Origin: a virus
Taxonomy: Duplodnaviria; Caudoviricetes
Strand: one strand, 5' to 3'
Virus record (IMG/VR): IMGVR_UViG_3300005058_000167
Coordinates: 1 to 36,398 of that record
Length of the DNA: 36,398 bases
In this document: in pieces, positions 755 to 26,757 of the stretch
Numbering within the stretch: position 1 is the first letter of the stretch
How the letters are laid out: every line of letters begins with the position of its first letter
Translations under genes and position numbers: made by a program
The notes under the pieces: model-generated
Told to the model about the DNA's origin: nothing
Database searches by the model: none
The model's input: the letters and a program-made list of their open reading frames with translations, nothing else

Positions 755-2023
755 TTACTTTTTCCAGATCAGGCGGCCGATGCGCTGCTTGTCGAAATAC
801 TTCTCTTTGCTGGCCGGGAAGACCGTCGCGCCCGTCCATCCCGCCTTCGACCACTCGAACACACCGACGCCATAGCGGCCATCTCCGTCGATTTCGAAGG
901 CCTTCACGTAGCGGCGTTTCAGGCGCCATTTGGCCGGGTCGCCGGCATCCTTTTCCCAGGCCCACCAGATTTCATCCGGCTCGATCAAGGTCATGGCCAG
1001 CAGGTTGATGTATTTCAGGCGGTCGGCCTTCTCCGGCTCGGCCAGCCACTTGAAGTTATCGCCTTCCTTCTCGCTGCCCTTGACGAAGAGTGCCTTGGTG
1101 ATCGCCAGCGTGCTGCCGGCCACATCGGTGAAGGCGGCGCCTTCGGCCAGCGTGGCGCCGAAGATGTCGAGGAAATCAGCAACGGCCACTTCCGGCGCAG
1201 TGCCGGCCGGCAGAACCGCCGAGGCAGGGATTTTCGTTGGCGTCGGCAGCGCCGGGCGTTCTTTGCCAGTTGGCCAGGCCGCTTTGCGTTCCTTCAACAC
1301 CGCATCGTAGCCCTGCAGCGGCGGCACGGTGTGCGGTTCCAGCCAGGCCTTGCCTGGGTTGTAGGCGAAGCCGGGGTCGATGCCTTTCGGTACCTGAACC
1401 GTGCGCGGGTTGCTGCCGTTCTTGCCGACCACCTTCTCTTCCCACTCAATGGGCGGCGCTTCGTCCGGGCCGGACTTGCCGTTCTTCTTCCACTCCCGCT
1501 CTGCCTCGACTTTGGACAGGGAGTACTTGCGGCATTTGCAGCCCCAGCCGTTTTGTGGCGTGTGGGTGTTCCACCACGGATCATCCAGCGGCAACACCAG
1601 GCCGTTCCACGCCTTGTGCTCCAGGCGCGGGTGCTCGATGCTGGTGTGGCGATACATGGCGTAGGGCCGCAGGTGCTTGACGGCCTGCATCTGCTTTTCG
1701 CGGCCGGCGTTGAAAGACTGGGTGATATTGGTGTCGTAGATGATTTTCGAGCGCCAGCCGGGCGAGCCGTTGTGTGCCCAGCCGTGCTTTTTGACGATCT
1801 CCGGGAAAGCCTTCTGGAACTCGGCATAGCCGCCGGCTTCCTTGGCCTTGGCGATGGCGTTGTAGAGGTCGCCAACCAGGTCATCATGGGCGGCGCCGGC
1901 CACCACGAAGGCATGCGAGTGCTGTTCCTGCCAGATGTCCGTCCAGCCGGACGATGGCAGCTTGATCTTCGACTTGAAGAAGTCGATGGATTCGGTGAAT
2001 GGGAGGTTGGCAGGGTTGGCCAT
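755..2023 (-). CDS. MuF (gpF) head morphogenesis protein with C-terminal extension (PBECR2-like nuclease fold suspected)
   Basis: AFVVAGA, IYDTNI, PRLEHKAWNG, WWNTHTPQNGWGCKC, GIDPGFAYNPG; ~190 aa extra C-terminal domain ending KQRIGRLIWKK. Confidence 0.88.
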   Translation of the reverse strand: MANPANLPFTESIDFFKSKIKLPSSGWTDIWQEQHSHAFVVAGAAHDDLVGDLYNAIAKAKEAGGYAEFQKAFPEIVKKHGWAHNGSPGWRSKIIYDTNITQSFNAGREKQMQAVKHLRPYAMYRHTSIEHPRLEHKAWNGLVLPLDDPWWNTHTPQNGWGCKCRKYSLSKVEAEREWKKNGKSGPDEAPPIEWEEKVVGKNGSNPRTVQVPKGIDPGFAYNPGKAWLEPHTVPPLQGYDAVLKERKAAWPTGKERPALPTPTKIPASAVLPAGTAPEVAVADFLDIFGATLAEGAAFTDVAGSTLAITKALFVKGSEKEGDNFKWLAEPEKADRLKYINLLAMTLIEPDEIWWAWEKDAGDPAKWRLKRRYVKAFEIDGDGRYGVGVFEWSKAGWTGATVFPASKEKYFDKQRIGRLIWKK

Positions 2024-2025
2024 GG

Positions 2026-2532
2026 CTATGTCTTGCCGGTTTTAATGAAAACACCGCGATCGCTAAGTTTTCGCAGGGCGTCAGCGCAGTCATCGCCAAA
2101 AGCGAATAAGACGGTACCTGCACCGCACCGACTTTTCTTGTGCTGATTTTCCAGACCAGGAACGAATTCAATCCGACCCGATACGAACAGCATTGCGCTT
2201 GCGGATCTCATCGCGTCTTGGCACCAGCCTGCGTCCGTTCGACTAAAAACAAGAGCAATACCGTTTCCGTGCTCAGCCATCCTCTTTACCCACATCCCAG
2301 TATCTGGCCCATATGGCGGGTTCATCCAGACGCGGCCGAACCATGGTTTTTTCAGGCCATCATCGAAGACGGTGTATTTGGTCGTGGCCGGTACCGCTGT
2401 TTCCATGTCGTGTGGGCTTGATGGGTCAAGGTCGAACGTCAAGCCGAGGGCATCAAAAATCCAAGCTGGCGTGTACCACTCAACACTCTTATGAGCTGGT
2501 GCCGTTCTAGCCTCGCCGAACATTCCGCTCAT
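2026..2532 (-). CDS. dam: Phage DNA N6-adenine methyltransferase
   Basis: EWYTP, FDLDP, WMNPPYG motifs; ATG at 2532 overlaps portal stop (ATGA); target specificity not established. Confidence 0.85.
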   Translation of the reverse strand: MSGMFGEARTAPAHKSVEWYTPAWIFDALGLTFDLDPSSPHDMETAVPATTKYTVFDDGLKKPWFGRVWMNPPYGPDTGMWVKRMAEHGNGIALVFSRTDAGWCQDAMRSASAMLFVSGRIEFVPGLENQHKKSRCGAGTVLFAFGDDCADALRKLSDRGVFIKTGKT

Positions 2533-4088
2533 CGCCTGTCCCCAACATCCGCCCGCCCCGCCAAATGCGCAGCCGCCATGCCCAACTGCATCGCCTCTGC
2601 CCACTTCGGATCAGCCTTCAGCGCGGCAATCCCTTCCAGCGCCGCATCAAAGTCGCCAGCCTCGGCAACAATCGCGCTGATCTGCTGGATCAGGCCTTGC
2701 TCGAAGGGTGCGCACAGGGTGGCGAGCTGGCTGCCGTAGGCGGTGGTGATGTCCGTTTCGGTGGCCAAGGCGACCAGGCGCGTCAGAGCAGTCTCAGCCG
2801 GGTTGGCCGGGCTGGGCGTGGTGGCCGGTGCGGTCGGCTTGTTGGTGGCGATCAGCAGCTTGGCGCCCTTTTCAGCACGCGGTAGCTGCATGATCTCGTG
2901 GGCGTATTCCACGTCGATCTCCATGCCGATATCGGCGGCCTTGGCCAGCACGTCGACCATCTTCTGCTGATCGACGCTTTCCTGTGTCAGGTGGCTGAAA
3001 ACCGGCAGTCGATTCGGCGGGAACATGCTGTTGATCAGCGCAATCGGTTCGACCACCTGGCGGTTCATCGTCGGGTCGATCTGGCCCACGTCATGCAGCA
3101 TGATCTCGCGCCGAACCTTGTCGTGAATCTCGCCCAGCGCGTTGGTGCTCGTCTTGCCGTCCGCCTGGCTGGTCAGCGTGCCGCCGAGGATCGCCATCGA
3201 TTGCTTGCGCTCCCAGTAGCCAACGGCATTCAGGAAGTCGTCAATCGATCCGCTCTTCATCGCCTGGATGAAGTCGATGCTCATATTGGCCGGCACCACG
3301 CCCGCGCCATCGTTGCCGATATTGCGTACCGCCTTTAGGAGCTGATCGCGCTGCTTGGAATCGATCCCGGCCGGATACTTGCCCAGGCGCAGCGGCAGGC
3401 CGTACATCTCCAGGAAGCGCTGCATGTCCCGCTGGTTGTAGGCCTTGTAGGCATAGGTCCAGGCCAGCACGCGGAACAGCGCCGCCTGCTCGATGTAGCC
3501 CGATTTCGCACGGTGCTCATGAACTACCCAGCCCCATTCGCGCAAGGCCTCCGGCGCACCGTTCTTGACGTACTGCAGCGCCCCGGATTTACGGTCGACG
3601 CGGAATTCCGTCTGCGGCACCCAGATGAAGCCTTTCGGATACCACGTGTCGCCAAACTGCCAGTCGATCTCGTGGGCAGAGATGCCCTTGCCGATGGCGT
3701 CGCTGAGGTCGTACTGCATATCCTCGAAGCGGGGAATCTTGCGCAGGATGTCTTCCAGCTCTTTCGTCCGGTCGATCTCCGACTGATTCGCATCCTCCGG
3801 CGGCGTCAATTGCCAGCCCAGCCCGGTCACCGCCCGGCGCCGCTTGGCCAGTTCGGCGAAGATATGCGCGTCCTGCTCTTCCACCAGGTTGAACAAGGCC
3901 GCCTGATCGGTGATATGGCCTTCGTCGGCAGCCGCGAACGCGCTGGCCAGCCGTGCCGGCGGAATCGTGGTCACCGACAGGTAATTGGCCGTCGTCGCAC
4001 TCGAACGCGGGCCGGCCTGCAGCACATCCAGCCCGGTGCGTGCCACCCTGGCCAGCGCCGCCTTGATCTCTTTAATCATCGTCGTCAT
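2529..4088 (-). CDS. Portal protein (Mu gp29/DUF935)
   Basis: DAHIFAELAKRRRAV, FLEMYGLPLRLGKY, AILGGTLTSQADG, ALGEIH; follows TerL; start 4088 or 4079. Confidence 0.93.
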   Translation of the reverse strand: MTTMIKEIKAALARVARTGLDVLQAGPRSSATTANYLSVTTIPPARLASAFAAADEGHITDQAALFNLVEEQDAHIFAELAKRRRAVTGLGWQLTPPEDANQSEIDRTKELEDILRKIPRFEDMQYDLSDAIGKGISAHEIDWQFGDTWYPKGFIWVPQTEFRVDRKSGALQYVKNGAPEALREWGWVVHEHRAKSGYIEQAALFRVLAWTYAYKAYNQRDMQRFLEMYGLPLRLGKYPAGIDSKQRDQLLKAVRNIGNDGAGVVPANMSIDFIQAMKSGSIDDFLNAVGYWERKQSMAILGGTLTSQADGKTSTNALGEIHDKVRREIMLHDVGQIDPTMNRQVVEPIALINSMFPPNRLPVFSHLTQESVDQQKMVDVLAKAADIGMEIDVEYAHEIMQLPRAEKGAKLLIATNKPTAPATTPSPANPAETALTRLVALATETDITTAYGSQLATLCAPFEQGLIQQISAIVAEAGDFDAALEGIAALKADPKWAEAMQLGMAAAHLAGRADVGDRR

Positions 4089-5853
4089 CCCACTCTTCGG
4101 AAAAGCCGCTGGTGAAGCCACCACGGCCGGTATTGCGTTGGTTCATGCGAGAAGTTCCGGCCGAGGTGTAAAGCCATTCGCCCGCGAACTGGTTGGCCAG
4201 GCGCCACAGCTTTTCCAGGGCGTCCGGGCCGTCGTCGTGGTCGGCTTCCGGCCAGAACTTCGTCTGCTCGATCATCACCGTCTGCGAGCGGTGCAGCCTG
4301 ATCTTGCCGTTTGCGAAGTGCGGCTGCAGGCTGATGATGCGCAGGTCTTTCTCGACGTTCTCCGGCATCGGGATGCCGGGGAAGGCAATGCCCAGCAGCG
4401 CCGCCCGCTTCAGCAGCTCGGTGTACATGAACTCCTGAAACTGCACCGTCTCGACGCCCCAGGCCAGGCACTGGTATTCCGCCTGCAGGTCGATGGCGCG
4501 ACTGATGATCAGGTCCGGCACGCGCTTGGCGATATCGGCCTCGACCACATCGAGCACCATCGTGTTGCGGTTCAGACCGCCGACCAGGATCGCCGAAGGG
4601 TCACGTTTCTTGCCCTGCTTGCCGAGCGAAGGATCAATGGCGCCGAAGAACAGCCAGTCCGCCCGCCGATCCACCCAGAACTGGATGTTCTTGAACGGCG
4701 CCGAATCATCGTTGCCGGCCTCGTTCTGCTGTTCCTGGTTGAACGCGTCGTGGTCGCTGGCGAACATGCAGAACAGCCGGTAGAGCGGCCGCACATCCGG
4801 CCACGACACCACAGCGCCGGCATCCATCGCCGCTTGGTTCGCCTGGTAGAAGGCCAGCGCCTCGGCCTCGGCCTTTTCCTGCGCTCCGTCTTCATCGCTG
4901 GCCGCTGCCGAGGTGTAGATGCCTTCCCACTGCTCCCACAGGTCCATGCGATCCGGCCATTTCATGATCGACTTGAACACCTTGCGCCGCCAGCCCGGCT
5001 TGCGCGAAACGCGGTTGATCGCCGCGTCGTAGTGCAGCGAGGTGCCGACCCAGAAGATATCCATCCCGCCCGCCGGCCCGGCCAGGCCGACCACGGCCTT
5101 GATCACGAAGTTTTGAACGGCGTCGCGCTGTTCCTTGTTGCGGACGTTCTCATCGTTTTCCAGATCGTCCAGGAAGATCAGGCCCGGCCGGTGCGGACCA
5201 TGGCGCATACCGCGCATCTTCTTGCCTACACCGCCGACGCGTACCTTGATGCCGTTGGCCGTGTGGATGGTCGCCGCCTGCCAGACGCGCCCACGGCCGA
5301 CCGCCTTGGGGAAGTCGGCCGCCAGGCGTGGGTTGCTGTCCAGCTCGGCCTTGATCGCTTCGAGCATTTCAATCGACTGCTCCAGCGTGTTCATGATGAT
5401 GCCGATCAGCCACTTGCGTGCCTTGGGGCTGGCGTGCGGGACCAGCTCAGCCAGATAGTTGGCCCGGCAGATGCACCACAAGCTGCCGAGCTGCGTTTCG
5501 TAGGTCGACTTGGCCTCGCCACGAGGCGCCTGATGCACTTCGCGGGCATCGGTCTGGCCGTCGATCCGCTCCGGGAAGCATTCGAAGATGAACTGGTGGA
5601 ACTGCGAGAAGTGCGGCGTCGGCACGTAGTGCGGGAAGTAGGTCTTGCAGAAAAACTCGTAATCGACCACCGCCCGCTCGCGCCGCGCCTTGCTCGCCGC
5701 CGGGTCGATGGGGAAGGCCTCGCACTCCAGCTCGATAGTCTGGCGCAACTCCTCGGCGAAGGATTCCATCCGGCGCTGAAAGTCGCCGAGGTTCTTCACC
5801 TCGGTCAGGTCTTCGTAGTCGTCGGTCCAGTCGAATTCACGCATGGTCGTCAC
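4072..5853 (-). CDS. Terminase large subunit
   Basis: Walker A APRGEAKST, Walker B IFLDDLE, nuclease motifs IDPS and HDDGPDALE. Confidence 0.93.
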   Translation of the reverse strand: MTTMREFDWTDDYEDLTEVKNLGDFQRRMESFAEELRQTIELECEAFPIDPAASKARRERAVVDYEFFCKTYFPHYVPTPHFSQFHQFIFECFPERIDGQTDAREVHQAPRGEAKSTYETQLGSLWCICRANYLAELVPHASPKARKWLIGIIMNTLEQSIEMLEAIKAELDSNPRLAADFPKAVGRGRVWQAATIHTANGIKVRVGGVGKKMRGMRHGPHRPGLIFLDDLENDENVRNKEQRDAVQNFVIKAVVGLAGPAGGMDIFWVGTSLHYDAAINRVSRKPGWRRKVFKSIMKWPDRMDLWEQWEGIYTSAAASDEDGAQEKAEAEALAFYQANQAAMDAGAVVSWPDVRPLYRLFCMFASDHDAFNQEQQNEAGNDDSAPFKNIQFWVDRRADWLFFGAIDPSLGKQGKKRDPSAILVGGLNRNTMVLDVVEADIAKRVPDLIISRAIDLQAEYQCLAWGVETVQFQEFMYTELLKRAALLGIAFPGIPMPENVEKDLRIISLQPHFANGKIRLHRSQTVMIEQTKFWPEADHDDGPDALEKLWRLANQFAGEWLYTSAGTSRMNQRNTGRGGFTSGFSEEWDDDDD

Positions 5854-6062
5854 CAGTCACGAGAGTCGAAACCGACCCAGCCGGCGATGCTATGAGCGAT
5901 GTTGCCCAGCTTGATCAGCGGCCACGTTACAAATACGGTCGTGAACAGAATTGGGGCGAGAAGAATGGCCAGAACAAAGCGTAGATGAGGGGCCCGCTTT
6001 TTCGATTTGAAGGCCCAGCGAAGAAGCGCTTTGCTGGGTTCGCCGTAGTAGTAGACGCGCAT
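5850..6062 (-). CDS. Small hypothetical membrane protein
   Basis: 70 aa, hydrophobic segment, ATGA-coupled to TerL, lower GC. Confidence 0.55.
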   Translation of the reverse strand: MRVYYYGEPSKALLRWAFKSKKRAPHLRFVLAILLAPILFTTVFVTWPLIKLGNIAHSIAGWVGFDSRDW

Positions 6063-6064
6063 GG

Positions 6065-6292
6065 CTATGGCAAATCCTTTTCAAGCATTGCTGCCAAATC
6101 CTGATTCGCCTTTCGGCATATGACTTCAAACCGTGACATGATTTTTTGTTCGCGATGCGTCCGTCTCGCCCTGTAGAACTTCCCGAAGTCGGCCATGCCT
6201 TCAACGTTCTTGGCGATGCTATCGGCCATCAATTGGTGCGCAACGACAGACAGCGCCTCTTCAGTGGCTGCGGAGAGTAGTGGCTTAGCCAT
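6065..6292 (-). CDS. Hypothetical protein
   Basis: ATG 6292 overlaps TerS end; tight packing. Confidence 0.55.
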   Translation of the reverse strand: MAKPLLSAATEEALSVVAHQLMADSIAKNVEGMADFGKFYRARRTHREQKIMSRFEVICRKANQDLAAMLEKDLP

Positions 6293-6779
6293 ACCGCTTC
6301 CCCAGCACCGCCCCGATATCCTCGACATGTGGCTGCAGCGCCCGCAGTGCGGCCGGGTCGGTTTTCTTCAAATACTCGGCGATGACCTTGAGCGTATCCA
6401 GTGCCACGGACAGCCCGGAAAACTGCGGATTCAACCGCCCAAAGGCCTTGCTGAACTTGGCGTAGCCATCGGCCAACTGGGCGAGCAGCGCGGCCTTGTC
6501 GCTGGCCGGAATCTTCGCTTCTTCCAGTTCCCGCGTGGTCGTGATCACCTGGCGGGCAAAGTCTTCGATGAGCTGCTTGTTCAGCTCGTCCATCCCTTGC
6601 TCGCTGATGCGGTAGGCGGCGCGAGCGGTGTCCCAGTCGTCGCCCTTCGCCTTGGCAATCCGCTTCCACTCGCGGGCCGTGTCGTAGCTGACACCGCAGG
6701 TGATGGCAGCACCGTTCAAGGGCATGCCCTCGATGTAGAGCTGCCGTGTCCGCTCGCGGGTTTCCTGGCTGTGGGCCAT
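6285..6779 (-). CDS. DUF1804-family protein, probable terminase small subunit
   Basis: MAHSQETR..., HTH GVSYDTAREWK, GDDWDTARAA; upstream of TerL. Confidence 0.85.
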   Translation of the reverse strand: MAHSQETRERTRQLYIEGMPLNGAAITCGVSYDTAREWKRIAKAKGDDWDTARAAYRISEQGMDELNKQLIEDFARQVITTTRELEEAKIPASDKAALLAQLADGYAKFSKAFGRLNPQFSGLSVALDTLKVIAEYLKKTDPAALRALQPHVEDIGAVLGKRYG

Positions 6780-6781
6780 GG

Positions 6782-7147
6782 TCAGATGCGCTTGATGATT
6801 TCGACAGCCGCAGCCGCCAGTGCGCCGCCCACACCGCCACCCAGCGCGCCGAGCTTGGCCGTTTTCTCGATCAGCTTCTTGTCCTCAACTTCCAGGTTGG
6901 TGACGCGGGTACCGAGGCCGTCGATGCGCTTGTTGACGTCTTCGCGCACCTGGTTGATCTGGCCGGTCAGGTTCTCCTCGATCCGCGTCATGCGTTCGCC
7001 CTGGGCCTGCTCCAGACGGCGGATATCGCCCTTGATGTCTTCGATGCGGGCGGTCAGGCCGGTATGCATGGCGTGCACGGCGCCAGTGAGCTGGCCGATG
7101 CTGTGCATGATCTGCGAGTTATCACGGCGGTCGTCTTGGGTAGTCAT
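6782..7147 (-). CDS. Coiled-coil protein with C-terminal hydrophobic anchor
   Basis: Heptad pattern, C-terminal GALGGGVGGALAAAAV; between spanin and TerS. Confidence 0.7.
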   Translation of the reverse strand: MTTQDDRRDNSQIMHSIGQLTGAVHAMHTGLTARIEDIKGDIRRLEQAQGERMTRIEENLTGQINQVREDVNKRIDGLGTRVTNLEVEDKKLIEKTAKLGALGGGVGGALAAAAVEIIKRI

Positions 7148-7662
7148 TTTTCTTGGTCCTCGGCGGTTTCAAAATCGATCAGTGCGCCGAGTCGGTCACG
7201 GCACGTGGCGTATTGGCGGATGGCGTGGTCGATCCATTCCGCGATGTCGGTATCGGTGGCAGCGGGGGCATCTTCAGCATCAGGCCGGCTGGCGGCTTCG
7301 GGCACGGCTGGGGGCTTGATACCGCCGGAACCGTTGAGCAGGCGGACAGTGCCAGCATTGAGACAAGGCCGGCCATGCGTAAGGCGTTTGATTTCACGGG
7401 AGTGCTCCTGGGCTTGGGAAAGTCGTTCCTGGTCGGCCGCTTCCAGTTGGCGCTGCAGGGCATTGGCCACCTGCTGGGCAGCGATCAGCTTGTCGCGGCT
7501 GTCGGTAGCCGCCTGGCGATCGGCCTCGGCCTGCGCTTTCTCCAGCTTGGCCACCTTGATGTCGCCCACGTAGAGGCCCATCTTCATGCCGAGCAGGAAG
7601 ACGCAGGCCAGCACGATCAGGGTGCAGAGAACGACGATTCCGCTGAGAATCTTGTCGGTCAT
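7144..7662 (-). CDS. Rz-like inner-membrane spanin
   Basis: N-terminal TM helix, coiled coil, C-terminal Cys; lysis cassette. Confidence 0.8.
   Translation of the reverse strand: MTDKILSGIVVLCTLIVLACVFLLGMKMGLYVGDIKVAKLEKAQAEADRQAATDSRDKLIAAQQVANALQRQLEAADQERLSQAQEHSREIKRLTHGRPCLNAGTVRLLNGSGGIKPPAVPEAASRPDAEDAPAATDTDIAEWIDHAIRQYATCRDRLGALIDFETAEDQEK
7179..7397 (-). CDS. Rz1-like outer-membrane lipoprotein spanin embedded in Rz
   Basis: GTG start with AGGAG 7 nt upstream; MKSNALRMAGLVSMLALSA-C lipobox; Pro-rich mature part. Confidence 0.8.
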   Translation of the reverse strand: MKSNALRMAGLVSMLALSACSTVPAVSSPQPCPKPPAGLMLKMPPLPPIPTSRNGSTTPSANTPRAVTDSAH

Positions 7663-7934
7663 GGCGCATCTCCAAACATTGATTCGATGCCGCCCATGGC
7701 TTCGCGAACCATGGAGACAGCCCTTTCCTGGGTGATCTCCTCGAAGGCCGTATCAGCCTTGGATTCGCCATCATCGTCATCGGTGTAACCGATCCTGAAT
7801 TGACATAAGCCGAGACCATCAACGCCGGGATAGAAATGGAACGCGATCTCAGGGCCTTCATCGCTGCTCTGGCGCATAACAAGCACCTGGCCGCGTTCCG
7901 TTTCATACAGCTTGGCAAAGGGCTTCATACGCAT
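7659..7934 (-). CDS. Hypothetical acidic protein within lysis cassette
   Basis: Overlaps both endolysin and Rz; exact start uncertain. Confidence 0.65.
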   Translation of the reverse strand: MRMKPFAKLYETERGQVLVMRQSSDEGPEIAFHFYPGVDGLGLCQFRIGYTDDDDGESKADTAFEEITQERAVSMVREAMGGIESMFGDAP

Positions 7935-8575
7935 ACCCCTTTTCCCCAGGCCGTATAGGCCGGCTGCAGCACTTTGATGATCCGCTTCGGGTAACCGCGA
8001 TTTTCAGCAAAGGCTCCCTGGCTGCGGCCCGCGTTGAATCGTTCCACCTGCCCCCACCAGCGCGTTCGAATGCCACCCGAAGCCTGCGTCAGTGCCTTGT
8101 CCTTCAGCAACCAGCCCAGCCCGCCGTTGTAGGCTGAGAGCACCATGGCTATGCGTTCGCAATCGTTCTCGGCCGCGGTGCGTTCCCACAACCATCGGTC
8201 GTAGGCCGTCAGGGCACGCAAGGCCCAGACAGGGTTATCCGGCTGGCGCTGTGCTAGCTCCGGTACGATGCCGCCAATCCAGTCTGCCGTGGCCGGCATG
8301 AACTGGGCGAGGCCCTTGGCACCGACGCGGGAGACAGCACGGGCATTCCAGCCGGATTCCTGATGCACCTGGGCGGCAAAGGTGGCAATGGGCGCATCCA
8401 GCCCCCACGCCAGGCGCGCATTGCGCGTCAGCTCGCCCCGGTACTGTTGTGCAGACTGCGGCACTTCGGCCGCCTGCAGGTGGCCGGAGAGCAGACCACC
8501 GACCAGGCAGAGCACGGCCACCAGCAACGTGGCCAGCAGTTCCTGCCGTTGTTCCAACGTCCAGCGCCCGAACAC
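7925..8575 (-). CDS. SLT-family lytic transglycosylase endolysin
   Basis: QVHQES catalytic Glu, GLAQFMPATA, SAYNGG; N-terminal hydrophobic signal/SAR. Confidence 0.92.
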   Translation of the reverse strand: MFGRWTLEQRQELLATLLVAVLCLVGGLLSGHLQAAEVPQSAQQYRGELTRNARLAWGLDAPIATFAAQVHQESGWNARAVSRVGAKGLAQFMPATADWIGGIVPELAQRQPDNPVWALRALTAYDRWLWERTAAENDCERIAMVLSAYNGGLGWLLKDKALTQASGGIRTRWWGQVERFNAGRSQGAFAENRGYPKRIIKVLQPAYTAWGKGVCV

Positions 8576-8577
8576 GA

Positions 8578-8940
8578 TCAGGCTCCCAGACCCATGGCCA
8601 GCATGGCACAGCCGACGATGATGGATCGTCGCAGCATGGCAATGCCGAAGAGATGCGCCGTAGCGCTATCGCCCATATCCCAGGGCGGAAGGGTGAAATT
8701 GACCTCGGTGCTCGCCGGGTCGCAGAAGTCGAAATCACCGTCGCAGGTTTCGCCCATGAAGGCATCCGGCCGGGCATAGGGGAACAGCGAACGGTCAAGC
8801 CAGTAACCCACCACACCGGCCATGCTGACCAGGGAGAGCTTGTACAGGCTGACCGGCAACTGCTGCGGCGCGAGCAGGCCGATGATGCAGACAAGCATGA
8901 TGGTGGCGATCAGCCACCCGAAAAGGCGGGGAGGTTTCAT
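8578..8940 (-). CDS. Putative holin
   Basis: Three hydrophobic segments, GYWLDRSLFPYARP motif, upstream of endolysin, AGGAG RBS. Confidence 0.85.
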   Translation of the reverse strand: MKPPRLFGWLIATIMLVCIIGLLAPQQLPVSLYKLSLVSMAGVVGYWLDRSLFPYARPDAFMGETCDGDFDFCDPASTEVNFTLPPWDMGDSATAHLFGIAMLRRSIIVGCAMLAMGLGA

Positions 8941-9688: not shown

Positions 9689-10468
9689 TTAATTTTCCAA
9701 AAATAGGCCATAGCTCCGACCTTGCTTGACGCGCTTGATATCGCCGATTATCTCTGCGTAGTACATCACATACCGAAACCGCTCGACATCAAACTCAGGA
9801 AACCCTTTCGCCAGGCTTGACTGGATCACGCCAGGGCGTGACTCGACAATCGGCATGACCACTGCCATCACCTCGGTGTAGTATGGATCGGCGCGCATCA
9901 GCCCCGCTAGCAAATGATCATAGGCTGCAGTGGCTTCGGGCAGCGCATTCTCTTCACGCATCCGGAAACCGACTGCGCGTAGCTCTTGCCGGGCCGCCTC
10001 AAAGTCGAGCCGTAGCCAATGTCGGCGCACTGTATCGAACTGGCGCTGCCAGTAGTCATCGATTTCGACCCCGGTTTCGATCCATGCAGCCCTGGCACGA
10101 ACCTTCGAAGCGAGAGTTGGATGCACCGCTCCGATCCGCAACGCGATGCCTCGTAGCCATGTTTGAGCTGATCTGCTGGTTTTGTGAATCCGTTCTCTGG
10201 CCACCTCTGGTCCGATGGCATTCTCGATTGTGCCACGCTCGCTTTCGGTCAGAGACTCCTGCCACCACTCTGCCAGATCGAAATAATCAATCAGTCCGGA
10301 TGGCGTGTCATCGACGTTGACGGCGCCCAGTGTCGTGATGTGCAAGTTCTGAATCACCACGGTATTCGTGCCACAAAGTTGGCCGATCAGGCCGGTGATG
10401 TTGGTGCTATTGACGATGTCGCCTATGGCGGCTTGTGCGCCCTTATCAGCCGCTGCTTTGTTCCCCAT
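9689..10468 (-). CDS. Accessory hypothetical protein, possible C-terminal winged-HTH
   Basis: Start overlaps repressor 3' end; C-terminus RPGVIQSSL...IKRVKQGRSYGLF. Confidence 0.7.
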   Translation of the reverse strand: MGNKAAADKGAQAAIGDIVNSTNITGLIGQLCGTNTVVIQNLHITTLGAVNVDDTPSGLIDYFDLAEWWQESLTESERGTIENAIGPEVARERIHKTSRSAQTWLRGIALRIGAVHPTLASKVRARAAWIETGVEIDDYWQRQFDTVRRHWLRLDFEAARQELRAVGFRMREENALPEATAAYDHLLAGLMRADPYYTEVMAVVMPIVESRPGVIQSSLAKGFPEFDVERFRYVMYYAEIIGDIKRVKQGRSYGLFLEN

Positions 10469-10907
10469 TTGTTCCCCTGTTGACGATCTTCTTTCCCGCT
10501 GCCTGCGCATTTCTCCCGGTCGCAGTTACGGTGATTTGTGTCTGCTTTGCTTCAGCAGCTTTTTCTTTGATTTTTTTCTGTACTTCCAGCGGCCCTGATT
10601 CCGTAAGAACAAAGGCCAGCATCCGTCTTCGGGTCGGCACGTCGAGTGCGCGATAACCGTCGAGCAAGATCATTTCATCCGAAGCAAGCGCCGAGTTGGA
10701 GCGAATGCCGGTCAGGATGTACTGAGCATCCGCACCCGCCTGGGCGAACAGGAACAGCACGTCGCCACCCATCGCCGCCTTGGCGCGCTCGTACTTTCCC
10801 CACATCTCGCGACTGACGCCGCAAGTGCTTCCAGCCTGCTCCTGGCCAAGCTTCAAGCGCTTCCTTTCCTCGGCGATCCGAGGTGCACAAACAATACAAA
10901 AATCCAC
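10446..10907 (-). CDS. XRE-family phage repressor
   Basis: RIAEERKRLKLGQ...GVSREMWGKYER, GADAQYILTG; divergent from ner; GTG 10907 start preferred over TTG 10925. Confidence 0.88.
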   Translation of the reverse strand: MDFCIVCAPRIAEERKRLKLGQEQAGSTCGVSREMWGKYERAKAAMGGDVLFLFAQAGADAQYILTGIRSNSALASDEMILLDGYRALDVPTRRRMLAFVLTESGPLEVQKKIKEKAAEAKQTQITVTATGRNAQAAGKKIVNRGTNGEQSSG

Positions 10908-10918
10908 GTTCGACCCCG

Positions 10919-10947
10919 TTGACAAAGAGAACTCAAGTTCTCATAAT
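10919..10947 (+). promoter_or_regulatory. Early sigma70 promoter with overlapping operator
   Basis: TTGACA-17-CATAAT; palindrome GAGAACT-CA-AGTTCTC 10927-10942 lies in the spacer. Confidence 0.85.
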
Positions 10948-10960
10948 TGAAACCACTTGA

Positions 10961-10976
10961 ACGAACTTAAATTCTC
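10961..10976. promoter_or_regulatory. Second, degenerate operator
   Basis: ACGAACTTAAATTCTC, 12/16 match to first operator. Confidence 0.6.
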
Positions 10977-11006
10977 AATCCATAACAACGGAAGGAGTGA
11001 AACAAA

Positions 11007-11243
11007 GTGAAAGACAACGAAAGGCTAGCACAAGTAAATAACCGGATAAAGACCGCCGGTATTGCGCAGTCCGCCATCGCCAAGCGCCTCGAAGTTCCTG
11101 AGTCGACGGTTAGCAAGGTTCTCAGCGGAAAGATGCCGGGCAAGCGTGGAAATGCTCGCAAGGTCGCTGTGGCACTCGGAATCGTCGATGGTCGTTTGGA
11201 TGTGACCCTGGACGATGTTCTTGTTGGTTTGAAGGCAGCTTGA
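11007..11243 (+). CDS. Ner/Cro-like HTH regulator (BcepMu gp16-like)
   Basis: HTH, VLSGKMPGKRGNARKVAVALG; first early gene; AAGGAG RBS. Confidence 0.82.
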   Translation: MKDNERLAQVNNRIKTAGIAQSAIAKRLEVPESTVSKVLSGKMPGKRGNARKVAVALGIVDGRLDVTLDDVLVGLKAA

Positions 11244-11253
11244 GGAAAAATAA

Positions 11254-12492
11254 ATGAGTAATTCACCCGTCAAATACCGCCACCCCGGAAATCACGAACT
11301 GGAATGGAGTGGCAAGGGTCGTCAGCCGAAGTGGGTTGAGGCATACCTGGCCAATGGTGGATCGATGGTCAGCCTGGATGTGTCCGTGCAGCTCCGGGAC
11401 GAAATGGAGCAGCTTGAAGATGCGCTCGATGCTGCCGAAATGGAATCTGATGGTATCGACCTCGGCATCGGCGACAGCTCGCCGGCCGTGTTCGAACCGA
11501 ATTACCAGATCGTTGCCGACACTAGCACCGATGAGGCGCGGCAGAGTATTGCCCGAGATGCCGCTATGTTGATTCCCGATGAATCATCCAGCCAGCAGGT
11601 ATCGCAGTTGGCTAAAGAGATTGGTTATAACGGCTCCCCGACCATCGGTTCGCTGGAAGACGAGATTCGGTTTTATCAGCGCCGTACAGTGGAGGCATGC
11701 CTGGAGCTGGGTAAAAGGCTGCTGCTCCTTAAAGCCATGACGCCGCATGGTGAATTTGAAAAGCGCCTCTCGCTGCTCGGCATTGAAAACACCAAGGCGC
11801 AGCGCTTTATGAAAGCGGCTGGAGCTACAGCCAAAAGCAGCAATTTGCAGCTTTTGAGCGATAAAACAAAATCGTTTTCTGCGTTTTTTGAAATCGTGAT
11901 GACCGACGATGAGGTAGTTGAAAACATCCTGGAATGGGATGACGTTGACCGTCTCTCCGCCAGCCAGCTCAGGGCGCGGGTAAGAGAATATGAACAGTCG
12001 ATAAACCGCCTTCAAACCGACCTTAATACGGCGCAATCGCGGCTTTCTGCCGAAGCCAAGACTCTGCCACCGCCGCTATTGTCGAGAGAGGTTGATAAGC
12101 AGATTCAGTCTGCCCTGAATGCTGAAGCCATGGGAGCTGCGGCGGTTGATCTGCTGAATCGGCAGATCAGCGATATGGCCGCTGGCGGTGACTTCCTGGC
12201 GGAACGCGCTGCAACGCTGCATAGCTGCTTGTGCGCGCTGGCCTCCCGAGTGTCTGTGGCTTTCAGCGCCTTGCAGGCGGTCGCCGACGACTGCGATGTA
12301 AGCCTGCCGAAACGCCCTCAAATGGTGGTCAGCGAGGAGATGGCAAGGGAGTACCTGGCCGCTCATACGGGATACATCGAAACGGCTATCGAGCTTGTAC
12401 AGAAACAGCAGATTGCCCGTGGGGAGGTGCTTGGGCGCGGGCGTGGCCGACCGGCGGGAAGCAAGAACAATCGAAAAGCAGGGGAAGCGTGA
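11254..12492 (+). CDS. H-NS DNA-binding domain / DUF3102-like / AT-hook fusion protein
   Basis: N-term KYRHP..WSGKGRQPKWV; central ELGKRLLLLK..HGEF..AQRFM; C-term GRGRP. Confidence 0.8.
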   Translation: MSNSPVKYRHPGNHELEWSGKGRQPKWVEAYLANGGSMVSLDVSVQLRDEMEQLEDALDAAEMESDGIDLGIGDSSPAVFEPNYQIVADTSTDEARQSIARDAAMLIPDESSSQQVSQLAKEIGYNGSPTIGSLEDEIRFYQRRTVEACLELGKRLLLLKAMTPHGEFEKRLSLLGIENTKAQRFMKAAGATAKSSNLQLLSDKTKSFSAFFEIVMTDDEVVENILEWDDVDRLSASQLRARVREYEQSINRLQTDLNTAQSRLSAEAKTLPPPLLSREVDKQIQSALNAEAMGAAAVDLLNRQISDMAAGGDFLAERAATLHSCLCALASRVSVAFSALQAVADDCDVSLPKRPQMVVSEEMAREYLAAHTGYIETAIELVQKQQIARGEVLGRGRGRPAGSKNNRKAGEA

Positions 12493-12845
12493 TGTTCGGC
12501 GGCGTTCCTGACGTGATTTGCGACCTATGGATCATTCGTGACTGGCAGGCAAACGAAGCGTTGCGCGCTGGAAACGTCGATGCCTGCAATGCCATGCTCG
12601 CCGAGGCTCTTGATGACGAGGCGGCCGTCTATGGCCTGCCGCATGACTACACCGCCGGTCGGCGTGTGCATGTGTTTGCCAATGCTGACTGTGAAGTATG
12701 GCTCGGCTGCTACGACCCGGAATGGTGCAACGCGATATCCGTGCTGCCCGACACCGGCATGGCTGATGCAGTGGCTGAGGATGGTGGTCCATACGCCATC
12801 CTGCTGGATGGTCGTGCCGTGGTCGGTGTTCATTCCCGGAGCTGA
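12492..12845 (+). CDS. Hypothetical acidic protein
   Basis: TGATG coupling to the upstream gene; ends 2 nt before transposase. Confidence 0.6.
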   Translation: MFGGVPDVICDLWIIRDWQANEALRAGNVDACNAMLAEALDDEAAVYGLPHDYTAGRRVHVFANADCEVWLGCYDPEWCNAISVLPDTGMADAVAEDGGPYAILLDGRAVVGVHSRS

Positions 12846-12847
12846 AA

Positions 12848-14518
12848 ATGAAAGCGAGTGCGATGGTTAAACGCATCGACGTTTCGAAGGCGCCAGGTGT
12901 GCCCGCCGTGATGCCAACTGCCCAGGTACTGGCGCTGCGTGCGCGTGATCCATGGCGCGAGGCAACAGAGCGTGCTCGGAAGATTGCTGTAGCACGCGAA
13001 GATGTATTGCTCAACCTGAAGTCGCGAATTATTCCTGGCGTGAGCGTTGATCGCGCTATCAAGTCGCTGCAGGCCGCTGCCGAGGCGGGAGAGCTGCCCC
13101 CGTTCCTGACGAATCAGTTGCGACTAGTGACGACACGGAAGGGACGGGCTGCACCGGGTCGAAATACGCTCTATGAATGGCTCGGCGATTATGAAGCGGA
13201 AGGTGTCACAGGACTCTTGCCGGAATACAAGGGCCGCGTCGTCGAAGCGGCCGGTTGGTGGGGCCCGGCACTGGAATACTTCAACGCACCCAGCAAGCCG
13301 GACATGTCGGCGGTGCATCGCCGCCTGGTCGAGGTCGATCACTTCGCCGTGTCGTATGACCAGGTACGCGGCTACCTGACCGGCGTGCCGGCCATGTACG
13401 GCCGCAACAGCCCGGCGCGGATCGGTCGAAACCTCTACAAGCTGACCGAGAAGGCCTTCATCCGGCGCTCGGTGCTGGCAGCGCTGCCGGGCGACATCCT
13501 GGCAGCGGACGGCTACAGCGCTGACGTGTATCTGGCACACCCGCTGACCGGTGGCCTGTGGCGGCCCGAGCTGACCGTGTGCATCGACGTGCGAAGCGGC
13601 TTCGTTCCGTACTGGCGGGCCGACGAACACGAAGGCACTTACGCCGTGCAGAACATGTGGGCCGAGGCTTTAAGCCGCTGGAACCATACGCCCATCTTCC
13701 TGTACGTCGACAATGGTTCCGGCCACAAGAACCGCCTGATGAGCGATGACAACGTCGGCTTCTACAAGCGGGCCGGCATCGTCGAGGTCATTCACGCGCT
13801 GCCGGGCAACCCGCACGGCAAGGGATGGATTGAGCGCTTCTTCAGGTCGATGAAGGATGACTTCCTGAAGATGGAGTTCCCGCAGTTCTACTGCGGCACC
13901 GACGCCTCGTCCGATCACCTCAAGCACGTCGTGAATGAGGTCCGGGCCGGTCGTATGGAAGCGCCCAGCCTGGCTGAGTTCACCGAGAAGTTCAACGCCT
14001 GGCTGATGCGCTACCACAACCGGCCGTCACCCGCCGAGCCACGCCGTACCCGGGCCGAAATCTGGGGCGAGCTGCAGCCGATCCCGCCGGCCGACAGCGT
14101 CAAGGAACTCAAGCGCCAGGCAACGCAGCTCACGGTGCGCCGCGCCTCGGTCAAGCACTACCGCCGGGAGTATGGCCACGCCGATCTGCATGCCTTCAAC
14201 GGTCAGAAGCTCATTGTCGAGTACGACCTGGTCGATGCCAGCTTCGTCGTCATCCGTACGCCGGACGGCCGCTGGATATGCGATGCGCCGCTGATCAAGG
14301 CTATCGACGTGATTGCACCGAACCGCCTGGAAGAAGCCCGCCAGATGCGTGCCGACAACGCCATCAAGCGCCTCGAAAAGAAGATGGCCGAGCAGCAGGC
14401 CCGCGCCGGCCGCGTGATCGACGCCGATGCCATCGCCGATGGCGCCGCCCTGGAAGGCCACTCCATTCGCCTGCTGCCCGAAGACGGCAACGACGACGAA
14501 ATCAACCTGTTCGACTAA
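12848..14518 (+). CDS. Mu-type DDE transposase (MuA)
   Basis: LAADG, YVDNGSG, KGWIERFF catalytic triad; Mu-type C-terminal domain. Confidence 0.93.
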   Translation: MKASAMVKRIDVSKAPGVPAVMPTAQVLALRARDPWREATERARKIAVAREDVLLNLKSRIIPGVSVDRAIKSLQAAAEAGELPPFLTNQLRLVTTRKGRAAPGRNTLYEWLGDYEAEGVTGLLPEYKGRVVEAAGWWGPALEYFNAPSKPDMSAVHRRLVEVDHFAVSYDQVRGYLTGVPAMYGRNSPARIGRNLYKLTEKAFIRRSVLAALPGDILAADGYSADVYLAHPLTGGLWRPELTVCIDVRSGFVPYWRADEHEGTYAVQNMWAEALSRWNHTPIFLYVDNGSGHKNRLMSDDNVGFYKRAGIVEVIHALPGNPHGKGWIERFFRSMKDDFLKMEFPQFYCGTDASSDHLKHVVNEVRAGRMEAPSLAEFTEKFNAWLMRYHNRPSPAEPRRTRAEIWGELQPIPPADSVKELKRQATQLTVRRASVKHYRREYGHADLHAFNGQKLIVEYDLVDASFVVIRTPDGRWICDAPLIKAIDVIAPNRLEEARQMRADNAIKRLEKKMAEQQARAGRVIDADAIADGAALEGHSIRLLPEDGNDDEINLFD

Positions 14519-14527
14519 GGGGAAATC

Positions 14528-15472
14528 ATGACTGAACAAATCAACTGGCCCGACCACTACACGGGCGTCGACCGCGAACTGATCGAAGCCACCCTCAAGT
14601 GGATCGAACAGCGCAGCTACACCCAGGCCGCCCTGGCCCGCCTGGCGCGCATCAGCGCCAGCAGCCTCAACCAGATTCTCAAGGGCACCTATGTCACCAG
14701 CCCGACCAAGCTGCTGGCCTCGGTTGAATCCGCCATGCGCCACGCCGACGAAACCAGCGGCCATGCCATGGCCCCGGTGCAGACCAGCGTTTTCAAGCTG
14801 GTGAATACCGCCTGCGACATGGCCCGGCGCTACCGCAACTTCGCGGTGATGACCGGCTTTGTCGGTACCGGAAAGACTTTCGCCTTGAAGTATTACGTCA
14901 GCACGCACCCGAACACCTACTTCATCGAAGCGGCGCCGACCATGACGCAGGCCAGCCTGACCAAGCAGCTCTACCGCCTGGTGGTCGGTACCGGCAAGGG
15001 CAGCATCGCCGACAAGTTTGATGAGCTGGTAGCCAGCCTCAAGAACACCGATGCGCTGCTCATCGTCGATGAGGCCGAGACGCTGACGCCGAATCAGTTG
15101 CACACCATTCGCCGCGTCCGTGACCTGGCCGGCATCGGCATCGTGCTCGCCGGTACCGAACACCTCTCGGGCCTGATCAAGCCGCAGCACGGCCAGTTCG
15201 ACCAGATTCGCAGCCGTACCGGCTTCTGGCCCGGCACGGTGACCGGCATCACCGCCGAGGATGCCGCTGCCCTGGTGCAGTCTGCCTTCGGCGCCGAAGA
15301 GGTCGCCGACGACGTGGTCGCTCGGCTCTTCGCCTACTGCAAGGGCAGCGCCCGGATGCTGGTCGAAGGCTTGATCGCCGGCATCAAGGAATTCCGCAAG
15401 AACCGCCCGCTCGACGTGAAGTTGGTCGATGCCGTCGCCAAACAGGCCCTGTGCCTGCAATCCCTCGCCTGA
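14528..15472 (+). CDS. MuB-like AAA+ transposition ATPase
   Basis: N-terminal HTH, GFVGTGKT, LLIVDEAE. Confidence 0.93.
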   Translation: MTEQINWPDHYTGVDRELIEATLKWIEQRSYTQAALARLARISASSLNQILKGTYVTSPTKLLASVESAMRHADETSGHAMAPVQTSVFKLVNTACDMARRYRNFAVMTGFVGTGKTFALKYYVSTHPNTYFIEAAPTMTQASLTKQLYRLVVGTGKGSIADKFDELVASLKNTDALLIVDEAETLTPNQLHTIRRVRDLAGIGIVLAGTEHLSGLIKPQHGQFDQIRSRTGFWPGTVTGITAEDAAALVQSAFGAEEVADDVVARLFAYCKGSARMLVEGLIAGIKEFRKNRPLDVKLVDAVAKQALCLQSLA

Positions 15473-16541: not shown

Positions 16542-16988
16542 ATGGATGCCCAAAAATCTCTGGCTGAAGCGATCAAGATGGTCGGCCGTTCAATGCCGGT
16601 CGGCATGGAAGTCCTTTTCAGTCGTGAGCCTGGCGAACCGGGCGCCTCGATGGTGATCGTTGAACCGAACGGGAACAGCACCGAGTATCGGTTTCTGAAA
16701 TCGGAGCCAATGGCTGATTTCGCGCTGGGAAGGTTGAGACTCGAATCCCAACTTGAGATGACGCTGCGCAATCTGCTCGCCAGCATCGAACTACACACCG
16801 ATTGCATGACTGGCGAGATTGATAGTGCTGCCATCGCCGATGAGGTAGATGCTGCTGAATTGCTGCTTTCCGAAAGCTGGGAGGTTGATGAAAGCCACCC
16901 GGCCAACCAGGTCAATTTTCAGCCGGCCACCGTCAGTTACCCGACCGGCAGCCTTGGCGAGCCTCTGGAGGTGTGCGATGAAGGCTGA
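16542..16988 (+). CDS. Hypothetical protein
   Basis: Tightly packed after gam. Confidence 0.65.
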   Translation: MDAQKSLAEAIKMVGRSMPVGMEVLFSREPGEPGASMVIVEPNGNSTEYRFLKSEPMADFALGRLRLESQLEMTLRNLLASIELHTDCMTGEIDSAAIADEVDAAELLLSESWEVDESHPANQVNFQPATVSYPTGSLGEPLEVCDEG

Positions 16989-24233: not shown

Positions 24234-25118
24234 ATGACTGCGACCAACGACGGGATCATTCACCTGCGAGGGAAGATCGAGGGGGGCAAGCTGGTCGCCC
24301 TCCTGGATCACCAGGGACAGGAATTGGGCGGGCCGGTTACGTCGAAGCTGAACGAGGTCACCGGGAGGATTAAAATCACAGGCGTCAATCCTGTGTCCTA
24401 CCTTGGCAAGCCGTCCGCCATGTTTGTCGGCGACAGCCTCATGGACCAGTGCTTTATCCCTAGCACCTCGTCGCGTTCAGCGCGGGACTGGATCATGCAA
24501 GCCGATGCTGAATTGGGCGGCGTGCTCGGTCGAGTATTTGACGCCGGAGTATCTGGCGACAATTCAAGCGAAATCCGCGCCAACCTCGCGGCATCGCTGG
24601 CGACTAATAATCCGGCCATCGTCATCTTTGGACCTATCTCGGTAAATAGCATCGGCGACGGCATCACGGCAGAGCAAAACATCGCCGACCTGCAATGGAT
24701 GTACGACACAGCGATTGCTTACCCGAGCGTCGTGCAGGTGTTTATCTCGACGGTGCATACGCCGACGGCTCAATCTACTGTTGCCGCGTCGCGCCGCTGG
24801 TTGGCTACGGTCAATGCTTTTGTCGAGGCATACGGGGCCGCGAAAAATATCCCTGTTATCCCGTTCGCTCGGCAATTTACGTCGCAGACATCGGGCGGCG
24901 CGAAGACCAATCTTTCGCCGGACGGCACGCATTTGACCTACAGAGGCGCTTACGAGATGGGCGTCAATCAGGTCAAGCCTGTCTTGCGTCCGCTGGCTGT
25001 CGCGCCGTGGTCAATGCCCCGTGGCGCGCTCAATCACCTCAATCTGCTCGGACCTGCAGCGGCTCTGCAAGGTGACATGCAGGTGGTGCAAACAACACGG
25101 CGATCAATGCGGGTATGA
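24234..25118 (+). CDS. SGNH/GDSL esterase-domain protein (N-terminal part of a probably frameshifted gene)
   Basis: VGDSL, GVSG, SVN, DGTH blocks after a ~48 aa leader. Confidence 0.8.
   Translation: MTATNDGIIHLRGKIEGGKLVALLDHQGQELGGPVTSKLNEVTGRIKITGVNPVSYLGKPSAMFVGDSLMDQCFIPSTSSRSARDWIMQADAELGGVLGRVFDAGVSGDNSSEIRANLAASLATNNPAIVIFGPISVNSIGDGITAEQNIADLQWMYDTAIAYPSVVQVFISTVHTPTAQSTVAASRRWLATVNAFVEAYGAAKNIPVIPFARQFTSQTSGGAKTNLSPDGTHLTYRGAYEMGVNQVKPVLRPLAVAPWSMPRGALNHLNLLGPAAALQGDMQVVQTTRRSMRV
24363..24383 (+). repeat. Left imperfect inverted repeat, candidate recombination site
   Basis: GGGAGGATTAAAATCACAGGC vs reverse complement of 25808-25828, 13/21. Confidence 0.45.
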
Positions 25119-25833: not shown

Positions 25834-26757
25834 ATGGCTTTCGCTGACATCCTGATCCGCTCGACCCTCGGCATCGTATCGCCGAGGTATCGGACGGTCG
25901 CTGACTGGGCTGAGGTGTATCGGCGGATCGTCGATACTAAGCCGATCTGCGACAAGACGAAGGCGAATCGTCGGGTCAGCGTGCGGCACATCGTTTCGGT
26001 GCTCGGGCCTCGTGTCATTTCCCGGGTGCTGCCGCATGAGATCGCCGAGCTGGTACAGCGCATTCATGCCATGCATCCGGCGCTTGCCAAGCGGGTCTTG
26101 ATCGAAGCCAAGAACCTGTTCAACGAGGCGGTCATCTATGGATGGTTGGACCGCAACCCGGCATTTCCGCTGAAGGCACCGGCCGTGCAGGTGCAGCGGC
26201 ATCGCTTGTCCCTGGAACACTGGCGCGCCATTCATGCTTACGCGGTGGCGCATCAGCCGCCCTGGGTGTCCAGGATGCTGGTGCTTGCCCTGGTGTCTGG
26301 CCAGCGGCGGTCTGACCTGGGCAAGATGCAGGCGGGCGATGTGTGGGATGGCTTTCTGCATGTGCAGCAAGCAAAGACCGGCATGCGCCTGGCGCTGCCG
26401 CTGACGCTGCGCCTGGAAGCGCTTGGCGTCAGCCTCGGCGAGGCGATTGATGATTGCCGGGGCTACGCTGTCGGCAGTGGTCGGCTGCTGCGCAAGCACA
26501 ATGGGCGGCCTATCGGCCTGGCCTCGATGTCGGCCCGGTTCGAGCAGGCCCGTGAAGGCGCAGGGCTGGTCTGGTCGGGTGGATTGCCGCCGTCGCTGCA
26601 CGAGTGCCGTTCGCTGTCTGAACGTTTGTACCGTGCCCAGGGCATCAACACCATGGTGCTGCTCGGCCACCGTCACCAGTCGATGACCGACCTGTACGAC
26701 GATGCCCGCGATCTCGAGGACGGCCGGACCGGCTGGAAGCATCTGGACGTTGCCTGA
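25834..26757 (+). CDS. Tyrosine recombinase, lambda-Int-like, lacking the arm-binding domain
   Basis: SGQRRSD (R), QAKTG (K), HECR (HxxR), LLGH, MTDLY (Y); core-binding domain begins ~15 aa from the start. Confidence 0.92.
   Translation: MAFADILIRSTLGIVSPRYRTVADWAEVYRRIVDTKPICDKTKANRRVSVRHIVSVLGPRVISRVLPHEIAELVQRIHAMHPALAKRVLIEAKNLFNEAVIYGWLDRNPAFPLKAPAVQVQRHRLSLEHWRAIHAYAVAHQPPWVSRMLVLALVSGQRRSDLGKMQAGDVWDGFLHVQQAKTGMRLALPLTLRLEALGVSLGEAIDDCRGYAVGSGRLLRKHNGRPIGLASMSARFEQAREGAGLVWSGGLPPSLHECRSLSERLYRAQGINTMVLLGHRHQSMTDLYDDARDLEDGRTGWKHLDVA

Follow-up and report, generated by a model that had tools for sequence, protein, structure and literature searches.

In the 36,398-nt stretch of viral DNA analysed here (the window; IMG/VR record IMGVR_UViG_3300005058_000167), an early gene upstream of the transposase encodes a protein that begins with the domain by which the host silencer H-NS binds DNA. 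The domain is host-like in sequence and is attached to a core that is predicted to belong to the KorB/ParB type of DNA readers. A candidate site for this core, a 25-bp palindrome, lies inside the gene itself. We suggest, tentatively, that the protein is a self-anchored regulator of the early operon. The gene has the following parts (positions are those of the window).

11254-12492, plus strand: whole gene, 412 aa, an early protein of the BcepMu gp10/KS10 gp15 type (PHROG 1748, DUF3102-like) with an N-terminal H-NS domain
11269-11382, plus strand: residues 6-43, a host-like C-terminal H-NS domain for DNA binding (Pfam score, identity to host proteins, and nonsynonymous polymorphism, pN, below synonymous polymorphism, pS)
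11383-11589, plus strand: acidic linker, residues 44-112, with a DLGIG motif and a module-swap junction near 11474 (charge, break in identity)
11566-12021, plus strand: core, residues 105-256, predicted KorB/Spo0J/Noc-like helix-turn-helix fold
11785-11802, plus strand: predicted recognition-helix residues 178-183 (ENTKAQ), inside the core
11832-11856, unstranded: candidate binding palindrome CAAAAGCAGCAATTTGCAGCTTTTG, 25 bp, 11 of 12 pairs, 1-nt centre at 11844, inside the gene
11995-12429, plus strand: residues 248-392, comprising a long helix and a helical C-terminal module, swapped independently of the core
12430-12489, plus strand: basic GRGRGRP tail, AT-hook-like, a family trait (AT_hook score below the cut-off)

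Residues 6-40 match the Pfam model of the H-NS C-terminal domain (PF00816) with 43.1 bits (E 3.5e-11; cut-off 25.6), and the score rises to 49 bits when the first 49 aa are searched alone. Weak rows for the C-terminal domains of Ler and Bv3F were the sole yield of PDB sequence and fold searches. An earlier, sequence-only reading of this DNA had placed an H-NS DNA-binding signature at the N-terminus and had noted that the H-NS oligomerisation domain is missing. Both claims are borne out: the domain begins at residue 6, so that 5 residues precede it, compared with about 60 or more in 77 of 78 host H-NS proteins. A GAGGA lies 7 nt upstream of the ATG at 11254, overlapping the stop codon of the ner-like gene. 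Furthermore, a start codon stands a few codons ahead of the KY-x-HP motif in all 12 H-NS-bearing open reading frames (ORFs) available as DNA, which counters the objection that translation might start downstream. The linker that follows has a net charge of -15 over residues 44-112, in agreement with the acidic linker described earlier.

The H-NS domain is under purifying selection. Among eight distinct DNA copies (L118 and L119 left out by the motif filter, two duplicates merged), pN was below pS in 28 of 28 pairs, with means of 0.30 and 0.65, and ten positions of the domain are invariant in 23 of 23 fusion proteins. Since the domain is retained under purifying selection, it likely reads AT-rich DNA, as judged from its sequence.

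Fusions of this kind are a minority within the family. We found the fused domain in 29 distinct family members (23 proteins and 6 from loci). Of the 120 best homologues 4 have it, as do 7 of 42 viral loci; a search with residues 1-48 gave 13 further fusion proteins, and a profile favouring the fusion found it in 6 of 150 cluster representatives. By tblastn, none of 24 matching records of named phages aligns before residue 65, and the H-NS domain is therefore seen in none of them. Both named genomes that carry the fusion are Azonexus, and the closest ordinary H-NS proteins, 63-68% identical, are those of Azonexus and Dechloromonas, from which we infer the host of the window phage. In a 39-column tree, 27 of the 29 fused domains fall in one starred clade, and a single clade for all 29 is not rejected (approximately unbiased test, p-AU 0.34).

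The gp10-type family is not alone in having acquired an H-NS domain. The 27 viral loci with such a domain comprise 12 long ParB-type proteins (5 of these 12 fusions confirmed by Pfam), one RdgC, two gp10-type fusions and 12 ordinary short H-NS proteins. Nine of ten ParB-fused copies group with H-NS of Oxalobacteraceae and related hosts (98/97); on this sequence grouping, the ParB-fused H-NS is a separate capture. Hence the appending of an H-NS domain to phage proteins recurs, in ParB, RdgC and the gp10-type family. In the phage RdgC and long ParB-type proteins the domain lies near the C-terminus (L092:4140-5123, L093-L096, L100-L102, L106, L107, L109, L110 and L112).

What kind of protein carries the H-NS domain in the window? 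The earlier reading called its core DUF3102-like. The homology holds, with a PHROG 1748 match of 107 bits, and the DUF3102 score lies under the Pfam cut-off, with 18.9 bits for the whole protein and 22.1 for the core alone against 24.4, a value that two relatives pass (P0003, a close one, with 29.0 and P0130 with 28.9). Fold searches with the whole protein were uninformative, since Foldseek returned zero rows at E<=0.001 and the rows of the VIA search were filled by a helical hairpin at residues 273-350. Hence, the core was folded alone. Its predicted fold is the KorB/Spo0J-type helix-turn-helix of the ParB superfamily, at 9-13% identity to those proteins. Two profiles run against the PDB sequences retrieved no ParB-family chain, and a profile-profile comparison with phage ParB regions did no better than controls. 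The window protein has no match to ParB_N, the N-terminal CTPase domain of ParB, for which phage ParB proteins score 80-86 bits, and no ParA gene was found among the 30-34 ORFs scanned, of 253 in the window. The model includes a long helix at residues 236-269, and the coiled coil called earlier holds to this extent; the long helix and the C-terminal helical module would likely serve dimerisation. Together with its candidate site, the core is predicted to be the main DNA-binding element of the protein, of the KorB/ParB type.

The palindrome directly follows the predicted recognition helix, ~45 nt away. No second two-armed copy was found in the 36.4 kb of the window. One lone half-site lies near 16870, and half-site matches at two mismatches number 21, close to the chance expectation (mean 13.9, with 21 reached in 9 of 100 shuffles). 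For comparison across the family we used 37 genes, that is, 46 loci minus 5 unanchored, with duplicates merged. A palindrome at the helix offset outranks other positions in 35 of these genes and beats synonymous recoding in 30. The 1-nt-centre site is present in 34 of 46 anchored loci (22 distinct), and its variation is compensatory: of the 132 pairs in the variable core of the site, 112 are kept, whereas shuffles average 70.5 and reach at most 88. Mismatches comprise 26 non-wobble pairs and 2 G-T, so the palindrome fits double-stranded DNA better than an RNA stem. The 12 loci without a 1-nt-centre site include BcepMu, phiE255, Ps59 and Fc22, which have perfect even-centred palindromes (displaced by four codons in the last three), and L003-L006, L148 and L267, which have imperfect ones; in PM105 and Ps60 no palindrome was found. 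When peptides alone are considered, 82 of 104 can be encoded with at least 10 of 11 pairs, compared with 15 of 9,940 controls. A second set, of 41 genes with mainly different core types, gave a top-ranked palindrome within the helix-surrounding fifth of the gene in 28 cases, a tie in 2 and one outside in 11. Other core types, as in loci L119, L128, L134 and L159, often have two tandem palindromes just ahead of the helix-turn-helix.

The bases of the site track the residues of the helix. Arg at helix position 3 is accompanied by G in 33 of 33 distinct helices, compared with 9 of 39 helices that lack this Arg, and no other position comes close; in the DNA-backed subset, G is seen in 14 of 14 cases with this Arg and in 1 of 9 without it. 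For residue 6 of the helix, C accompanies Gln in 6 of 6 cases and T accompanies Ala, Phe, His or Val in 5 of 5; G accompanies Arg in 6 of 8, where one row is misregistered, and Tyr is split. Helix and site, with ~45 nt between them, belong to a single exchangeable segment, so that every swap takes lock and key along as a pair. Physical linkage over the 45 nt could yield part of the association, and a tree-corrected test of coupling is underpowered, with only 5 contrasts (p 0.125). L145, L156 and L157 have a near-identical site near the gene start, together with a similar helix, which counts against pure linkage, although genes lacking that helix also have sequences that differ from the site by no more than two letters.

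The gene is a set of exchangeable modules, and the H-NS arm swaps between unrelated cores after DLGIG. Over residues 6-73, one relative (P0121) matches the window protein at 97-100% identity, whereas beyond residue 113 the figure is 18-24%. Another (P0002) is without the arm, yet is 77% identical in the core and 83% at the C-terminus. A contig from run X1 matches 11232-11474 with 5 differences and then diverges directly after DLGIG, and two further contigs have the gene start in common and a different continuation. In all, at least three core types have the arm. At the swap junction, the D-L-G-I motif (11458-11472) is shared by 22 of 23 H-NS-bearing proteins. Among the 235 other proteins of the family 26 have it, and its place is often the extreme N-terminus. 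GRP or GRGR tails are found in 23 of 23 H-NS-bearing proteins and in 107 of 235 other family proteins (>250 aa). Since they are common in relatives without H-NS too, the tail is a family trait. R-G-R-P is the defining core of the AT-hook. It is present in the window protein, but the tail scores 13.9 bits against the Pfam AT_hook model (PF02178; cut-off 17.4), and the R/K-G-R-P core is retained in only 3 of the 23 H-NS-bearing proteins. The terminal GRGRGRP noted in the earlier reading is present, but this AT-hook-like tail is not part of what is new in the protein.

The neighbourhood of the gene is that of an early operon of a Mu-like phage.

10446-10925, minus strand: repressor-like gene
10926-11006: AT-rich intergenic control region, within the block 10446-11243
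11007-11243, plus strand: ner-like gene
12848-15472, plus strand: genes for transposase A (556 aa) and the B-type ATPase (314 aa), further downstream in this operon

The full order is repressor-like gene (minus strand), ner-like gene, fusion gene, 117-aa ORF, transposase A, B ATPase, Gam, GemA, Mor, and head and tail genes. The transposase gene, tnpA, follows the gp10-type gene in all of the 42 viral loci (42 of 42) that C-terminal patterns retrieved. Of the 36 distinct loci with sufficient flank, 34 have it within 40 nt; in six further loci (L001-L006) the window transposase gave no match. In annotated phages the homologue lies directly before the transposase. The description of an early, pre-transposase protein is therefore sound. 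GC content over the 1.2 kb upstream is 0.54, with a minimum of 0.43, compared with 0.63 for tnpA. Upstream of the gene, 8 H-NS-bearing loci show a deeper AT dip than 28 others (p 0.004), a comparison confounded by the kinship of the H-NS-bearing loci.

Several other features of the region are worth recording. The 117-aa ORF between the fusion gene and tnpA (12492-12845, plus strand) has no Pfam or PHROG match, and among the loci checked only L151 has a homologue at the equivalent place. A 21-nt inverted pair (12563-12583 and 12873-12893, 86%) connects this ORF with the start of tnpA. Two related repeats of 14-15 nt (D8/I8) at 10927-10977, between the repressor-like and ner-like genes, are candidate repressor operators. 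A 273-aa ORF beside the repressor-like gene in the low-GC block (9689-10510, minus strand) also has no Pfam or PHROG match. The early module lies mid-contig, with lysis, terminase and portal genes leftward (755-8940, minus strand) and capsid and tail genes rightward (18955 onward, plus strand). Among the tail genes, between those for the tube and the tape measure, are a GDSL esterase-like gene (24234-25118, plus strand) and a tyrosine-recombinase-like gene (25834-26757, plus strand; PHROG 7244, E 2e-36).

What is the functional significance of an H-NS arm on such a protein? We propose, with a little less than even confidence, that the protein is a self-anchored regulator of the early/transposase operon, with the H-NS arm gripping the AT-rich control region nearby. 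The KorB/ParB-type core would bind the palindrome within its own gene, upstream of tnpA, probably as a dimer. The two H-NS heads of the dimer, on flexible acidic linkers of ~65 residues, would then reach the AT-rich repressor/ner region. It is probable that the arm reads the AT minor groove; that it acts through the flexible linker on the control region ~0.9 kb away is slightly less than an even bet. There, the captured host-type domain may compete with host H-NS. The outcome would be tuning of the operon that feeds the transposase, either by relief from silencing or by a phage-owned repression loop, and counter-silencing or bridging is the leading role that we would assign to the arm. A broader proposal is that transposable phages have a rapidly diversifying lock-and-key cassette, formed by a ParB-type reader without CTPase and its operator within a single exchangeable stretch of the gene, by which each genome marks itself; in one lineage the added H-NS domain would make this a site-anchored H-NS mimic that loops from the gene to AT-rich DNA and evicts host H-NS or steers the transpososome. 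We regard this as possible but doubtful.

Alternatively, the core may sit on its own-gene palindrome while the H-NS arm contributes only non-specific affinity for nucleoid DNA, speeding the search, prolonging residence or compacting the DNA, with no particular target. The separate capture of the domain by phage ParB-type proteins, its presence on RdgC and its combination with at least three core types are all consistent with a generic tether. However, the basic tail already supplies non-specific affinity in the family, and the deeper AT dip upstream of H-NS-bearing loci, although confounded, argues for a local target; we consider the tether rather unlikely. A role in transposition, in which the self-anchored protein would serve the transpososome as enhancer or self-marker while its arm captures or avoids AT-rich target DNA, is less plausible again. 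The constant proximity of tnpA favours it, the first 217 residues of the 556-aa transposase are without a Pfam match, and no Mu-type enhancer-binding domain was seen; moreover, H-NS affects Tn5 and Tn10 transposition and AT-rich cold spots exist, according to the available part of one account (PMC5977238). Nonetheless, operon position alone accounts for the synteny, and the transposase of L026 is 81% identical to that of the window while the core is 15% and the C-terminal module 22% identical. Transposase identity therefore does not track the modules of the protein, and the transpososome steering put forward in the sequence-only reading finds no support.

Two further explanations question the parts themselves. 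The palindrome could be an RNA hairpin or a recombination signal, with the core binding elsewhere, and both the high mosaicism of the gene and the tandem palindromes of some alleles are compatible with this. In contrast, the centres of only 0-1 nt, the scarcity of G-T among the mismatches, the tracking of helix residues by site bases and a predicted fold shared with palindrome readers make this very unlikely. We find it harder still to believe that the H-NS segment is untranslated or a mere neutral passenger. It is missing from most relatives, and it has drifted from the host loop, since 18 of 23 proteins have K at position 21 in place of R (relative to a pattern-selected host set); against this stand the consistent excess of pS over pN, the ten invariant positions and the start codon just ahead of the domain.

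The self-anchored regulator and its alternatives differ in what they would mean. In any case, a conserved hypothetical gene of BcepMu/KS10/B3-type phages gains a predicted fold, a 25-bp candidate site and a partial recognition code, and dozens of natural helix-site pairs allow a cheap test of that code. The H-NS arm is a phage capture of the reading head of a host silencer, under selection and shuffled across specificities. If counter-silencing is its role, phages would have in it a new way past xenogeneic silencing, and site-directed anti-silencers could be modelled on it. If the arm is a generic tether, it would still be a recurring add-on common to phage ParB and RdgC proteins. If the broader lock-and-key proposal holds, each phage genome would be marked orthogonally to its relatives, and the protein would amount to a programmable counter-silencer of natural origin whose helix-to-base code can be read.

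Several known systems share parts of this arrangement. The pre-transposase proteins BcepMu gp10, KS10 gp15, phiE255 gp41 and PM105_13 are PHROG 1748/DUF3102-like and have a homologous core (gp10 tblastn E 7e-10); they are annotated as hypothetical, with no function given. The BcepMu gp10 gene has a perfect 28-bp palindrome at the equivalent spot, and the order of repressor, ner-like gene, gp15, A and B in KS10 matches that of the window, as far as the available part of the genome paper describes it (PMC2628397). We found no literature on the fusion or on an own-gene site in BcepMu/KS10/B3-type phages, with most subscription papers outside our coverage, and no phage paper on DUF3102, as judged by titles and abstract openings.

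H-NS, Ler, Bv3F and the phage-encoded H-NS of EPV1 have the C-terminal DNA-binding domain in common with the window protein (PMC7074111, in part). In the window protein, however, the domain is N-terminal, is without an oligomerisation domain and is tied to a core predicted to be site-specific. The homologues covered in the available part of that review are full-length or truncated, with no such fusion among them (PMC7074111). Shigella VirB, a ParB-family protein, offsets H-NS silencing, but it is CTP-binding, plasmid-borne and without an H-NS domain, according to the portion of the source at hand (PMC10245682).

KorB of RK2, Spo0J/ParB and Noc share the predicted core fold and, by the titles of their PDB entries, read palindromic sites; the window protein differs in being without a CTPase domain and in having a diversifying candidate site in its own gene. 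Borrelia ParZ, as described in the accessible part of one paper, is possibly phage-derived, binds within its own gene and has an added N-terminal functional piece, but partners ParA in chromosome segregation (PMC9712426). The sole lead linking ParZ to the gp10-type family is an atlas cluster that mixes DUF3102 (14%) and PF01672 (11%). The window protein is thus neither an H-NS family member nor a full ParB, and resembles a KorB/ParZ-type reader of its own site with an H-NS head.
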